Source of the DNA: Phreatobacter sp.
GTDB lineage: Bacteria; Pseudomonadota; Alphaproteobacteria; Rhizobiales; Phreatobacteraceae
DNA: 64,000 nt
Assembly (NCBI RefSeq): GCF_022843985.1
Contig: NZ_JALHMP010000012.1
Coordinates: forward strand, 35,471 to 99,470
Reading direction: 5' to 3'
Position 1 is the stretch's first letter, and every line of letters starts with the position of its first letter. The notes beneath the pieces were generated by a model. That model saw only the letters and a list, made by a program, of their open reading frames with translations. It had not been told where the DNA came from and ran no database searches. Positions 43,658 to 49,529 of this stretch are shown here, piece after piece. Made by a program: the position numbers and the translations under genes.

Positions 43658-44200
43658 TTGATGGTGGCGGTCGGCGCCGATCTCAAGGACGCGCTCGCGC
43701 GCTGCGCGGGCGGGGACAAGGCCGCCCTCAGGATGATCTACGAGAGCGAATGCGCCGCGATGATCGGCGTTGCCGCGCGCATCGTGAAGCGTCGGGAACT
43801 GGCCGAGGAGGTCGTTCAGGAGGCCTTCGTCAAGATCTGGCGCAATGCCCACCGTTATGACCCCGGCCTCGGCCCGGCCAAGGCCTGGATCTACGCCATC
43901 GTCCGCAACCAGGCCATCAATACGCTGCGGAGCGGGCGGCGCGAGGATCTCGTCGACGAGGTGCCGGAGGATGCAGGCTCGGTGGTGGAAGCCTATGCCG
44001 CCGCCGAGCGCCTGCCGGACGGCCAGGCCCTGCGCCGCTGCCTGGAGGGGCTCGAGGCCCGCCGCCGCACGAGCCTCCTCATGGCCTATGTGGACGGCTT
44101 TTCCCATGGCGAGATCGCCGGCCGTCTCGGCCTGCCGCTCGGCACGGTGAAGGCCTGGATCCGCCGGTCGCTGCTGGCGCTCAGGGAGTGCATGGGATGA
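43658..44200 (+). CDS. ECF sigma factor (SigK-like)
   Basis: AEEVVQEAFVKIW, AWIYAIVRNQAI, GFSHGEIA.RLGLPLGTVKAWIRR. Confidence 0.93.
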   Translation: MMVAVGADLKDALARCAGGDKAALRMIYESECAAMIGVAARIVKRRELAEEVVQEAFVKIWRNAHRYDPGLGPAKAWIYAIVRNQAINTLRSGRREDLVDEVPEDAGSVVEAYAAAERLPDGQALRRCLEGLEARRRTSLLMAYVDGFSHGEIAGRLGLPLGTVKAWIRRSLLALRECMG

Positions 44201-44898
44201 CCGACGACCTGATCGCCACCGCCGGGGAATATGTCGCCGGACTGATGTCGCCGGAGGAGCAGGAGACCTTCGAACGGCTGATCGCCAGCGACCCCGTGGC
44301 CCGCAGCGCCGTCGCGGACTGGCGCTCGCGGCTTCTCGCCCTCGACGAGACCGCGCCCCGGCTGACGCCCTCCGCAGGCCTGTGGCCGGCCATCGAGACG
44401 GCTATCGGCGCTGCGCGTCCGGGACAGGCGAAACCCGGCTGGTTCGCGCGCCTCTGGCAGGATGTCTCCGCCCTGAGGCTCGCCACGCTCGCGGGGGCTG
44501 CGGCGGCCCTGGTCATGGCAGTGCTTCTCGTCACCCAGCCGTTCGGCGGCGCGGGCAAGCCCACCGTCGTCGCCGTGCTCAACGCACCGAATACCAGCGA
44601 GGCCGGCGCCATCGTCGAGGCTTTCGCCGACGGCCGTATCCGCGTCGTGCCGCTGCGCGCCATTCCGGTGCCGGAAGGGCGGGTGCTGCAGGTCTGGACC
44701 CTGTGGGACCGGCAGGTCGGTCCGCGTTCGGTCGGCCTGATGGAGCGGGCCGAGGCGCGCGACTACGCGACATCCGGCATGCCGCGGCCGGTCGACCAGC
44801 AATTGTACGAGATCACGCTGGAGCCCGCGGGCGGCTCACCGACCGGGCGGCCGACCGGGCCAATCCTCTATGTCGGGCGGGGTGCGACGCCGCTGTAA
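44197..44898 (+). CDS. Anti-sigma factor, RskA-like
   Basis: AGEYVAGL, one TM, LQVW, ITLEP.GGSPTG.PTGPI; ATGA overlap with the sigma gene. Confidence 0.9.
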   Translation: MTDDLIATAGEYVAGLMSPEEQETFERLIASDPVARSAVADWRSRLLALDETAPRLTPSAGLWPAIETAIGAARPGQAKPGWFARLWQDVSALRLATLAGAAAALVMAVLLVTQPFGGAGKPTVVAVLNAPNTSEAGAIVEAFADGRIRVVPLRAIPVPEGRVLQVWTLWDRQVGPRSVGLMERAEARDYATSGMPRPVDQQLYEITLEPAGGSPTGRPTGPILYVGRGATPL

Positions 44899-45003
44899 GA
44901 CCGTCGGCAGGGCGTAGCGGGGCTCTGCGGGGCCCGCTGCCCCTTGCCGATGACCGCTCCCCTGGGCTACCCAAGCGCTTCTCCTCCACTGTCGGGCCCG
45001 CCC

Positions 45004-46473
45004 ATGACCGCTCATGCCAATCCGAAGAACCTCATCCCCGGCGCCACGGGCGACTGGGAGGTGGTGATCGGCCTCGAGATCCATGCGCAGGTGGCCTCCA
45101 ACGCCAAACTGTTCTCGGGGGCCGCTGTCGGCTTCGGCGCGCCGGAAAACAGCCAGGTGAGCCTCGTCGACGCGGCCATGCCGGGGATGCTGCCGGTCAT
45201 CAACGAGGAATGCGTGCGCCAGGCGATCCGTACCGGGCTCGGCCTCAAGGCGACGATCAACCACCGCTCGGTCTTCGACCGGAAGAACTATTTCTATCCA
45301 GACCTGCCACAGGGCTATCAGATCAGCCAGTACAAGAGCCCGATCGTCGGCGAGGGCGAGGTCATCGTCGACCTGTCGCCGACCGAAAGCTTCACGGTCG
45401 GCATCGAGCGCCTGCACCTGGAACAGGATGCCGGCAAGTCGATCCACGATCAGCACCCGACGCTGTCCTATATCGACCTCAACCGCTCCGGCACCGCGCT
45501 GATGGAGATCGTCTCCAAGCCGGACATGCGCTCGGCCGACGAGGCCAAGGCCTATGTGACCAAGCTGCGCACCATCCTGCGCTATCTCGGCACCTGCGAC
45601 GGCGACATGGAGAAGGGCAACCTACGGGCCGACGTCAATGTCTCCGTGCGCAAGCCCGGCGATCCCTTCGGCACCCGCTGCGAGATCAAGAACGTCAACT
45701 CCATCCGCTTCATCGGCCAAGCGGTCGATTACGAGGCGCGCCGGCAGATCGGCATCCTTGAGGATGGCGGCACGATCGACCAGGAGACGCGCCTCTACGA
45801 CGCGACCAAGGGCGAGACGCGCTCCATGCGCTCGAAGGAGGAGGCGCACGACTACCGCTACTTCCCTGATCCCGACCTGCTTCCGCTTGAATTCAGCCAG
45901 GCCTATGTGGACGATCTCGCCGCTGTCCTGCCGGAACTGCCGGACGCCAAGAAGGCGCGCTTCATCAGCCAGTACGGGCTCACCCCCTATGACGCCTCGA
46001 TCCTCGTGCTGGAACGCGACAATGCCGACTATTTCGAAGCCGTCGCCAAGGGGCGCGACGCCAAGGCCTCGGCCAACTGGGTGATCAACGAGCTGTTCGG
46101 CCGCCTCAACAGGGATGGCCGCGATGTCACGACCTCGCCGGTGACGCCGGCCCAGATCGGCGGCATCGTCGATCTCATCGCCTCGGGCGTCATTTCCGGC
46201 AAGATCGCCAAGGACTTGTTCGAGATCATCTATACGGAGGGCGGAGACCCGGCGGCGGTGGTGGAAGCCCGCGGCATGAAGCAGGTCACCGATACCGGCG
46301 CCATCGAGAAGGTGATCGACGCGGTCATCGCGGCCAATCCCGACAAGGTCCAGCAGGCCATCGCCAAGCCGACCATGCTCGGATGGTTTGTCGGTCAGGT
46401 GATGAAAGCCTCCGGCGGCAAGGCCAATCCCGAGGCGGTGAATGCGATGCTGAAGACGAAACTCGGGATCTGA
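45004..46473 (+). CDS. gatB: Asp/Glu-tRNA amidotransferase subunit B
   Basis: [64 protein letters not shown]. Confidence 0.97.
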
Positions 46474-46517: not shown

Positions 46518-47096
46518 ATGGCGAGCCTCTGGACGGCGAACATCGCGCGGGATCCCCGGTATCGGGGCGCCGAGGAGATCATTGCGGCGGCCGGCTATGC
46601 CATCACCATCGCCGATGATGGTATCGCCATCGTCAATGAGGAGACCGGCGACAGCCAGCGTTTCCGCTCGCGCAAGGATGTCCTCGCCTTCGCCGCGTCG
46701 CTCGCATCGGGCGAACCGCCGCCGGTCCAAAAGCGGGGTGCGAGGATCCGCAACGGCCCGGGGTTCCGCGACCGGTCGGCCCGTCCGCCGGCGCGCGAGG
46801 CGGGATCGGGCGCGGACGGCGATGAGGAGTTGGATCTCGCCCGGCTGAAGGCGCTCTGCCAGGCGCTAACCATCGAGCGTGACGCGTGGAGGGCGCGGGC
46901 GCAGATCCGTGAGGAGACGGCGGCGAGCGAGCCCGCCGATGGTGGCGAGCAATACCGCGCGCTGAAGAAGTTCATCGCCCGCGAGTTCCACCCCGACCAG
47001 GTCCGTGCCGACGGAATCGAGCGGCTGGTGCGCACCGAGGTCTTCAAGACGATCTGGGCCCATATCGAGGAGATCGAGCGGTCCGGGCGGTCCTAG
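46518..47096 (+). CDS. Hypothetical protein with a C-terminal J-domain-like HPD module
   Basis: YRALKKFIAREFHPDQ...RTEVFKTIW resembles J-domain helix II-HPD-helix III; central coiled coil. Confidence 0.65.
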   Translation: MASLWTANIARDPRYRGAEEIIAAAGYAITIADDGIAIVNEETGDSQRFRSRKDVLAFAASLASGEPPPVQKRGARIRNGPGFRDRSARPPAREAGSGADGDEELDLARLKALCQALTIERDAWRARAQIREETAASEPADGGEQYRALKKFIAREFHPDQVRADGIERLVRTEVFKTIWAHIEEIERSGRS

Positions 47097-47194: not shown

Positions 47195-47827
47195 ATGTCG
47201 AAACGCTTCACGCTCCACGGTTTCTGGCTGTCGGGCCCGACCTACAAGGTCGGTCTCATGCTCAGCCTCTGCGGCGAGGATTTTGCCTATCATTCGCTCA
47301 ATCTGCGCGCCGGCGAGCACAAGGCGCCGGCGTTCCTGGCCAGGAACCGCTTCGGTCAGGTGCCGGCCCTGGAGGATGCGAAAACCGGCCTGTCGCTCTG
47401 CCAGTCGGCGGCGATCCTCGATTATCTCGCGGCCGAACTGGGTCAGTTCCAGGGCGACGGCGCTGCCGGGACCGCCCGCGCGCGCGAATGGATGTTCTGG
47501 GATTTCGACCGGCTCGCCGGGCCCATCTACCGTTCGCGTGCCCAGCGCTTCGGCCTTCGGGCCTATAACCAGCCGATCATGGAAATGTACTGGGCCGAAG
47601 GCAATGCGGCGCTGAAGGTGCTGGAGGAGGCGCTGGCGAAGGCCGACTGGCTCGCCGGGCCGCGCCCGACCATCGCCGACATCGACGTCTATGGCGTGGT
47701 TGCCTATGCGCCGCAGGCGGGCTTCGACCTCGCCGTCTATCCGGCCATCAGCACCTGGATGAGCCGGATGGAGGCGCTGCCGGGCTTCATCGCCAGCGAC
47801 GGCCTGCCCAAGGCGACGCGCGCGTGA
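47195..47827 (+). CDS. Glutathione S-transferase family protein
   Basis: SGPTYKV.L.L, NRFGQVPAL.D, L.QSAAILDYLA, WLAG..PTIADI; GAGGA RBS. Confidence 0.92.
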   Translation: MSKRFTLHGFWLSGPTYKVGLMLSLCGEDFAYHSLNLRAGEHKAPAFLARNRFGQVPALEDAKTGLSLCQSAAILDYLAAELGQFQGDGAAGTARAREWMFWDFDRLAGPIYRSRAQRFGLRAYNQPIMEMYWAEGNAALKVLEEALAKADWLAGPRPTIADIDVYGVVAYAPQAGFDLAVYPAISTWMSRMEALPGFIASDGLPKATRA

Positions 47828-48297
47828 GCGCCGAGGTCACCTTGCGGGAAGCGACCGTGGCCGACGTGCCGCGGATCGCCGCGCTCATCGCCATGGGCGA
47901 CGCCAAGTCGCCCCTGGATGCCGCCGCGGCCGAGGCGGAGGGCCTCCACCCCGCTTATGCCGCGGCATTCCGGCGGCTCGCTGCGTCAGAGGCCAACCAT
48001 CTGTTCGTGGCGGAGCAGGGCGGGCGCATCGTCGGTACCTACCAGCTCACGGTCCTGCCGGGCATCGCCGAGCGCGGCCGCACCCGCGGCAAGATCGAGA
48101 GCGTCCATGTCGACCCGACCCTGCGTCGCAGCGGCATCGGCGCGGCGATGATGCGCCACGCCATCGCCACTGCCCGCGACAAGGGGATCGGGCTTGTCGA
48201 GCTGTCGTCGAACAAGAGCCGCACCGATGCCCATCGCTTCTACGAGCGGCTGGGTTTCGCCAGGAGCCACGAGGGCTTCAAGATGGCCCTCGACTGA
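47824..48297 (+). CDS. GNAT N-acetyltransferase
   Basis: VGTYQLT.LPG, IESVHVDP.LRRSGIG..M, LSSNKSRTDAHRFYERLGF..SHEGFK. Confidence 0.92.
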   Translation: MSAEVTLREATVADVPRIAALIAMGDAKSPLDAAAAEAEGLHPAYAAAFRRLAASEANHLFVAEQGGRIVGTYQLTVLPGIAERGRTRGKIESVHVDPTLRRSGIGAAMMRHAIATARDKGIGLVELSSNKSRTDAHRFYERLGFARSHEGFKMALD

Positions 48298-48830: not shown

Positions 48831-49529
48831 ATGTCGCAACGTCCGATCGAACTCCATTACTGGCCGACCCCGAACGGGTGGAAGATCACCATCATGCTGG
48901 AGGAATGCGGGCTGCCGTACAACGTCATTCCCGTGAACATCGGCAAGGGCGACCAGTTCAAGCCCGAATTCCTGAAGATCGCCCCGAACAACCGGATGCC
49001 GGCCATCGTCGATCCCGACGGGCCGGATGGCGCGCCGATCTCGGTCTTCGAGTCGGGCGCAATCCTCCTCTATCTCGGCCGCAAGACCGGCCGGTTCTAT
49101 CCGCAGGACGAGCGCGGCCGCGTGGCGGTGGAGGAATGGCTGATGTGGCAGATGGCCGGCTTCGGCCCCATGCTCGGCCAGACGCACCATTTCCGTATCT
49201 ATGCGCCTGAAAAGATCGAGTATGCGATCAACCGCTATACCAACGAGGCCAACCGCCTCTATGGCGTCCTCAACCGACGTCTCGAGGGGCGCGACTTCAT
49301 CTGCGACGCGGTGTCGATTGCCGATTTCGCCTGTATCGGCTGGGCAAAGCTCTGGGAACGGCAGGGGCAGGACATGGACCAGTTCCCGCAGGTGAAGGCC
49401 TGGATCGACCGGATGCTGGCGCGGCCGGCGGTGCAGAAGGGGCTGATGGTCAACAAGGAGGACCGCAACGCTACGGCGCCGCGCGATCCGGCGGCGCAGG
49501 CGATCCTCTTCGGCCAGACGGCGCGCTGA
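48831..49529 (+). CDS. GST Nu-class (YfcG/YghU-like) disulfide oxidoreductase
   Basis: WPTPNGWKI.IMLEE, PNNRMPAIVD, FESGAILLYL..KTG, RYTNE..RLYGVL. Confidence 0.92.
   Translation: MSQRPIELHYWPTPNGWKITIMLEECGLPYNVIPVNIGKGDQFKPEFLKIAPNNRMPAIVDPDGPDGAPISVFESGAILLYLGRKTGRFYPQDERGRVAVEEWLMWQMAGFGPMLGQTHHFRIYAPEKIEYAINRYTNEANRLYGVLNRRLEGRDFICDAVSIADFACIGWAKLWERQGQDMDQFPQVKAWIDRMLARPAVQKGLMVNKEDRNATAPRDPAAQAILFGQTAR

Follow-up and report, generated by a model that had tools for sequence, protein, structure and literature searches.

A C-terminal HPD hairpin resembling the J-domain in a Phreatobacter protein and its mostly alphaproteobacterial family

A short gene in the 64,000-nucleotide stretch of Phreatobacter sp. 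DNA analysed here (hereafter, the window) encodes a protein that ends in a predicted helix–HPD–helix hairpin. The closest known sequence profile to this hairpin is that of the J-domain, which it matches across helix II, the HPD tripeptide and helix III in one register. The same module is a mobile C-terminal domain common to hundreds of protein clusters, in which it carries no annotation; this mobile nature was overlooked in an earlier note on the locus, which treated one protein. The module is not a canonical J-domain and stands outside PF00226, since it scores below the Pfam threshold and lacks the fold of four helices. It is probably related to the J-domain, and the reading preferred here, to which slightly better than an even chance is given, is that of a minimal J-like, DnaK-recruiting module carried on an adaptor of the class C style.

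The J-domain activates the DnaK/Hsp70 chaperone, and J-domain proteins determine the sites and substrates of Hsp70 action. Helices I and IV form the core of the canonical domain. The primary interface with Hsp70, for binding as well as for ATPase stimulation, is formed by helix II, the HPD tripeptide and helix III (PMC10410713). In DnaJ, residues H33, P34 and D35 contact L391, P419 and R167/Q378 of DnaK, and R22, K26, R27, K48 and K51 also contact DnaK and position the J-domain; an H-to-Q or D-to-N change in the HPD abolishes ATPase stimulation (PMC8215388).

Architecture of the protein and extent of its family

AlphaFold2 modelling with an alignment of 14 sequences divides the window protein into four parts: an alpha/beta N-terminal domain, a disordered linker, a long helix and the C-terminal helix–HPD–helix hairpin. 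This layout agrees with the one proposed in the earlier note (N-terminal domain, coiled coil and C-terminal HPD). All parts are given below in window coordinates on the plus strand.

The N-terminal domain (residues 1–64, 46518–46709) is predicted to be a small alpha/beta fold of two helices, three strands and one helix, modelled over residues 4–64 with a pLDDT of about 85. The first 65 or so residues had been described as unrecognised, and this description held: the domain found no match in Pfam, NCBIfam, PHROG, PDB sequences or the ESM Atlas (residues 1–68 in the last case). An HMM of the domain matches 48 of the 167 collected proteins, 21 of which belong to Phreatobacter or close relatives. 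A hydropathy signal at residues 21–39 in three Phreatobacter orthologues corresponds to the beta strands of this domain, and the window protein has no genuine membrane helix; Pfam gave no TerB match in it either. As a separate observation, one 1614-residue protein (P0140) consists of about 25 tandem repeats of a unit of about 57 residues, ..AEQVQQRCADAGVELLDEY..KKYRVRYVACGHE.., which matches residues 12–53 of the N-terminal domain (E 1.4e-6); the Pfam matches of P0140 look like repeat artefacts.

The linker (residues 65–99, 46710–46814) is rich in Pro, Arg and Gly and predicted to be disordered (pLDDT 41–43), with gaps, low conservation and a variable length and sequence in the alignments. It is followed by a long helix (residues 100–137, 46815–46928), modelled with a pLDDT of 94–96 in the C-terminal AlphaFold2 model. 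This helix is probably a coiled coil, and members of the family match coiled-coil families in domain libraries. It carries the motif ERDxW..RA..E, with E120–W124 at 46875–46889; in an alignment of 165 family sequences, R121 is conserved in 69%, W124 in 67%, A128 in 73% and E132 in 70%. A profile covering residues ~67–135 (46710–46928), from the linker into the long helix, matches bZIP, tropomyosin and three GrpE proteins in the PDB, the GrpE matches falling on the long N-terminal helix of those proteins with E-values of 0.1–1.7. Homology to GrpE was considered and rejected, the matches being treated as probably due to coiled-coil composition.

The hairpin itself is formed by the equivalents of J-domain helix II (residues 142–157, 46941–46988), placed by the AlphaFold2 model and the family alignment, and of helix III (about residues 166–191; residues 166–189 at 47013–47084), placed by the model and the alignments. 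The tripeptide H158-P159-D160 (46989–46997), read directly from the sequence, lies at the tip, in the loop between the modelled antiparallel helices 142–157 and 167–191. The stretch quoted in the earlier note, QYRALKKFIAREFHPDQVRADGIERLVRTEVFKTIWAHIEEI, corresponds to residues 145–186. A second AlphaFold2 model, of residues 100–192 on 138 family sequences, reached a pLDDT of 86.5; the long helix spans residues 101–137 in this model and 100–134 in the full-length one. Helices I and IV are absent from both models, whose C-terminal part contains only the hairpin and one long upstream helix, and the protein ends 1–3 residues past the helix-III equivalent; the earlier remarks that these two helices were not evident and that the module was C-terminal are thus confirmed in the predicted structure.

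All 14 aligned sequences, among them a relative of 46% identity, have the HPD, as do 158 of the 166 sequences of the family; six others read HPN and one YDP. By position, H is conserved in 99%, P in 100% and D in 95% of 165 sequences. Conservation of the tripeptide among homologues and the fold were among the checks suggested for the earlier proposal: the HPD was found conserved and the predicted fold was a helix–HPD–helix hairpin, so that neither of the two outcomes named there as refuting it came about. In the helix-II equivalent, the basic positions are K150 (99% K/R), K151 (73%), R155 (87%) and that of Q145, which is R or K in 88% of the family. The near-invariant residues of the helix-III equivalent are G166, E168, R172, E174, F176, K177 and W180; in the 165-sequence alignment, F176 reaches 99%, W180 98%, K177 94% and R172 93%, and A154, ahead of the HPD, also 93%. 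The HPN subgroup (P0071, P0135, P0144, P0159, P0162 and P0166) displays the motif variants ..AFAR[LK]YHPN.. and ..FKEFW...

Beyond the window, an exhaustive search of representatives returned 285 clusters (50% identity) at E<=1e-3, the majority from metagenome-assembled genomes of Alphaproteobacteria; a word-indexed search returned 18 relatives, all of them close. The family core comprises the last ~75–90 residues: part of the ERDxW..RA..E helix, a variable spacer and the hairpin, with the consensus [RK]-[YF]-x-x-L-[KR]-R-F-[IL]-A-[RK]-E-[FLY]-H-P-D-x5-G-I-E-[KR]-x-x-R-x-E-x-F-K-x-x-W-x-x-I-E-x-I-E. Members diverge to about 28% identity, and in most of 166 sequences the module lies within five residues of the C-terminus. 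Its N-terminal partners include the alpha/beta domain, TPR, MORN, Sel1 and CarD_TRCF_RID with CarD_C; about 35 of the 165 aligned sequences have a single N-terminal membrane helix, and one protein (P0023) has weak FtsK_gamma and winged-helix matches ahead of the HPD module. Short gene calls of 53–77 residues contain the hairpin alone and may be truncated. In a 297-residue protein (P0068), complete CarD_TRCF_RID and CarD_C domains precede the coiled coil and the HPD module, a fusion that would link the module to RNA polymerase.

No family in Pfam, NCBIfam or PHROGs names the module in the window protein or its relatives, and the source names of the family proteins are all hypothetical, save one "phage terminase Nu1 subunit". 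This name, together with one IMG/VR contig, led to a phage origin being considered; it was rejected given the lack of a PHROG match and the chromosomal context. Concerning its distribution, a degenerate DNA pattern of the invariant residues, applied to species-representative genomes, detected 36 loci, nearly all in metagenome-assembled genomes of Alphaproteobacteria (Acetobacteraceae, Xanthobacteraceae, Rhodospirillales, Rickettsiales and Phreatobacter). A family-profile search of 400 Pseudomonadota genomes yielded the window's own genome only, plus weak coiled-coil matches, in a set-up that scored 10 candidates per genome and so understates the range of the family. Three copies (L075, L054 and L078) lie on contigs binned as Archangium gephyra and Solirubrobacterales, the Archangium gephyra-binned copy having the same N-domain stretch as the Phreatobacter-type protein P0004; these contigs are possibly mis-binned alphaproteobacterial ones.

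Relationship of the hairpin to the J-domain

Profile–profile comparison provides the main evidence for a relationship. When the 165-sequence module alignment was compared by hhalign with 33 reference J-domains, drawn from 13 alphaproteobacterial genomes, the probability was 90.4% (P 1.4e-6) over J positions 16–52 of 74. A second comparison, of seven minimal sequences with 28 J-domains, gave 85.3% (P 6e-6) over J positions 17–56 of 63. The earlier suggestion that the stretch aligns with helices II and III was reproduced here in the same register. Searches of PDB sequences pointed in the same direction. The seven-member profile produced 28 matches at E<=10; 23 of these were J-domains, each aligned at the HPD. 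The best was the J-domain of dnj-2, with E 0.012 over 44 residues and covering both helices, and the main exception was AceK, a short chance match over ..LAKDFHPDH. With the orthologue profile, a J-domain (2qsa, dnj-2) again came first, aligned at the HPD with E 0.41. A single-protein phmmer search of the PDB returned just a chance match to santalene synthase, and the whole window protein gave no useful lead in the ESM Atlas.

At the residue level, A154-R155-E156-F157 align with the J consensus A-x-K-Y ahead of the HPD, and F176-K177-x-I179 with DnaJ F47-K48-x-I50, the hydrophobic spacing i, i+3, i+7, i+10 of helix III being preserved. The stretch from the HPD to F-K is four residues longer than in the J-domain, but accepted J-domains are likewise longer there, by three residues in dnj-2 and by seven in the DjlA-like protein of this genome. 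Among the DnaK-contacting basic residues of DnaJ, the equivalent of K26 (K151) is basic in 73% of the family and that of K48 (K177) is K in 94%; R is found at the R22 position in just 33%, a hydrophobic residue stands in place of R27, and K51 is replaced by an invariant W. Opposite the conserved Y25 of DnaJ, the family has an invariant K/R. Its conserved basic residues lie elsewhere, at K150 (99%), R155 (87%) and R172.

The Pfam DnaJ model, which finds five J-domains in the window's genome, has no match in the window protein even at E<=10, nor in the 14 orthologues; at E<=0.01 it also missed all of 138 family members. The best match in the family, seen in one member, aligns in the correct register and reaches 13.1 bits (E 0.11), against a gathering threshold of 27.8 bits. 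Because no member reaches that threshold, the module is not counted as a canonical J-domain. The earlier proposal of a cryptic J-domain-like protein stands as regards the likeness, on a profile–profile probability of 85–90% and the predicted hairpin.

Compared with class C (type III) proteins carrying the PF00226 J-domain, the module likewise has two antiparallel helices with the HPD at their tip, a basic helix before it ending in A-[RK]-x-[FYL]-HPD, and F-K-x-[IL] after it. It differs in lacking helices I and IV, in staying under the Pfam threshold and in the four additional residues between HPD and F-K. Furthermore, it has an invariant set of its own (G166, E168, R172, E174 and W180) and an obligatory upstream ERDxW helix, and it forms nearly always the C-terminal end of the protein. 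DjlA offers a second comparison: its HPD module is also C-terminal, and extra residues likewise separate the tripeptide from helix III. The residues that follow the HPD are R-L-I-G-R-G-V in the DjlA-like protein and Q-V-R-A-D-G-I in the family, with HPD-x-h-x-[AG]-x-G-h in common. The N-terminal membrane helix that replaces the soluble N-domain in part of the family (about 35 of 165 sequences) is also DjlA-like. However, the J-domain of DjlA scores 44.6 bits in this genome, over the Pfam cut-off, and has all four helices, whereas the window protein has neither a membrane segment nor a TerB-like domain.

These differences bear on a first alternative, in which the module would derive from a J-domain or mimic one and yet not activate Hsp70, serving as a decoy or regulator of DnaK (in the sense of Pam16) or as a re-used hairpin whose HPD is structural. 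The loss of helices I and IV, the replacement of the Y25 and K51 equivalents by an invariant K/R and W, the family-specific residue set missing from J-domains and the position of every member under the Pfam threshold all point that way. So does the HPN subclade, which counts against the preferred reading: the D-to-N change is inactivating in J-domains, yet six family sequences have it. Nevertheless, the HPD is kept in 95% of the family despite divergence to about 28% identity, the pattern of a functional tripeptide, and the basic face of helix II is retained. Known inactive J-like proteins, moreover, typically lose the HPD. A module that does not activate Hsp70 is accordingly regarded as rather unlikely, at about one chance in four.

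A second and less probable alternative is convergence or chance, where a coiled-coil protein unrelated to Hsp70 would have a hairpin of its own with the HPD as a helix-capping turn. Masking of the HPD is informative in this respect. The best alignment remained in the same register, but its score fell from 34.4 to 16.0 (P 0.013); the unmasked score is above every one of 200 column-permuted controls (maximum 20.3), and the masked score is above their 95th percentile (13.3) and below their maximum, inside the permuted range. The tripeptide thus gives about half of the profile–profile score, and the flanking helices add modest, register-consistent support. The weakness of the masked similarity favours convergence, as do the absence of a chaperone gene context and the score of the unrelated enzyme AceK, which over its short match equals that of most J-domains.

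The structural comparisons weigh on both sides. With the C-terminal model, the three top Foldseek matches were J-domains (2ctp, 2lgw and 3ucs), which speaks against convergence, although all had E>1; 2ctp superposed at 2.2 Å over 41 columns with 32% identity, and 5nro_B and 9dyv were also among the matches at E>1. In VIA-align, the model fitted 5nro_B (DnaJ bound to DnaK) with Z 5.1 and 2.7 Å over 49 residues, many unrelated hairpins fitting equally, and CbpA (3ucs_D) with Z 4.6 and 2ctp at 2.2 Å over 46 residues, unrelated hairpins scoring equal or higher. A search with the full-length model ranked the J-domain of JAC1 (3ag7) sixth (Z 5.3), again with unrelated hairpins at the same score or higher; Foldseek matched nothing with this model, which has a disordered middle. 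Wide VIA-align searches with both models returned generic helical hairpins at Z 5–7, as convergence would predict. The modelled fold is compatible with the II–III hairpin of a J-domain, without discriminating power. Sequence evidence also speaks against convergence: the share of J-domains among the PDB profile matches (23 of 28), in one register and across both helices; the 85–90% obtained in two independent profile–profile set-ups; the register kept after masking; and the coincidence of both F-K-x-[IL] in helix III and A-[RK]-x-[FYL]-HPD in helix II with the J consensus.

The gene and its genomic context

The gene is an ATG-to-TAG frame of 192 codons plus the stop, exactly 46518–47096 on the plus strand as read from the window, and begins 44 nt past the stop codon of gatB on the same strand. 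Orthologues of 188–193 aa, with 67–89% identity, are found in all five other Phreatobacter genomes searched, and the order gatB–ORF–GST–GNAT is kept in six Phreatobacter genomes, that of the window included. Differences from the closest orthologue fall mainly at the third codon position (15, 8 and 35 at positions 1, 2 and 3), and the GC3 of the frame is 0.86. An alternative upstream ATG at 46383 overlaps gatB, and the conserved N-terminus M..WT fits better with a start at 46518. The frame is a genuine, conserved protein-coding gene. A spurious or mis-delimited frame has next to no probability: such frames are abundant in high-GC DNA generally, and nothing further speaks for it, but the reading is refuted by the conservation of length and position throughout Phreatobacter, by a third-position substitution bias and GC3 that form the pattern of coding DNA, and by the existence of the 285 related clusters.

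Upstream lies gatB (44944–46473, plus strand), encoding subunit B of the Asp/Glu-tRNA amidotransferase (Pfam GatB_N and GatB_Yqey), a neighbour kept in Phreatobacter. A scan of the gatB–ORF gap found neither a sigma-70-like promoter nor a terminator, and co-transcription of the two genes is therefore possible. The two genes immediately preceding gatB, on its strand at 43658–44898, encode an ECF-type sigma factor (Sigma70_r2, r4_2) and, overlapping it, an RskA-type anti-sigma factor. Downstream, on the plus strand, are a GST (47195–47827) and, overlapping it, a GNAT acetyltransferase (47824–48297). A second GST (GST_N_2, GST_C; 48834–49529), about 27% identical to the first, follows the GNAT gene. 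Three Phreatobacter genomes (L008, L010 and L011) have some 600 bp between the ORF and the GST, an insert that the window does not have; in L008 it contains a 167-codon frame that runs in the direction of the ORF.

The position upstream of GST and GNAT stress genes had been mentioned in the earlier note. The synteny is real within Phreatobacter, but the neighbours at 30 other family loci are unrelated. Since the GST and GNAT neighbours are limited to Phreatobacter, this association provides no evidence for function. Those 30 loci showed diverse housekeeping neighbours, with no recurrent partner and no Hsp70, GrpE or phage genes, and a dedicated chaperone operon or a phage module was rejected on these grounds.

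The window's genome has one canonical DnaK, adjoining DnaJ. Besides DnaK, a single further sequence of this genome resembles Hsp70, a 1040-codon frame on the minus strand (G000:C12:104525-105337), about 5 kb past the end of the window and about 22 kb from the ORF, with weak matches to the Hsp70 nucleotide-binding domain (48.6 and 28.1 bits).

A candidate DnaK adaptor and its significance

With a single canonical DnaK next to DnaJ, a class-C-style adaptor is the most economical mechanism for the window protein. The preferred reading, a minimal J-like module recruiting DnaK, would then proceed as follows. The N-terminal alpha/beta domain would have a client or a site as its target, and the flexible linker connects this domain to the long helix, which probably dimerises. 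The hairpin would dock, in the manner of DnaJ, where the nucleotide-binding domain, linker and substrate-binding domain of ATP-bound DnaK meet, and would trigger ATP hydrolysis, so that DnaK would be delivered to the target of the N-terminal domain. The upstream ERDxW helix may replace helices I and IV, make the dimer, or both.

The combination of a constant C-terminal module with varied N-termini matches the build of class C J-proteins, in which one effector domain is likewise combined with many alternative targeting domains. A TPR region followed by a C-terminal J-domain is a known class C precedent. A broader proposal, advanced tentatively and with a little less than an even chance, is that the two-helix HPD hairpin represents a new and minimal J-domain class that dispenses with helices I and IV and is supported or dimerised by the ERDxW helix. 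Its proteins would be DnaK adaptors of the Alphaproteobacteria with interchangeable N-termini: a membrane anchor, TPR, MORN, Sel1, CarD, a winged helix or the alpha/beta domain.

A large census of J-proteins (PMC10410713) drew on UniProt and InterPro annotation, and a family without a domain model that recognises it would escape such a census. For the window, the gain is modest: a "hypothetical protein" receives a testable annotation. For the family, the meaning depends on DnaK. If the module does not activate it, a conserved J-derived hairpin would have been put to another use. If it does, helices I and IV would be dispensable and the hairpin would define the minimal natural Hsp70-activating unit, opening new routes of DnaK targeting in Alphaproteobacteria, with the CarD fusion pointing at RNA polymerase.
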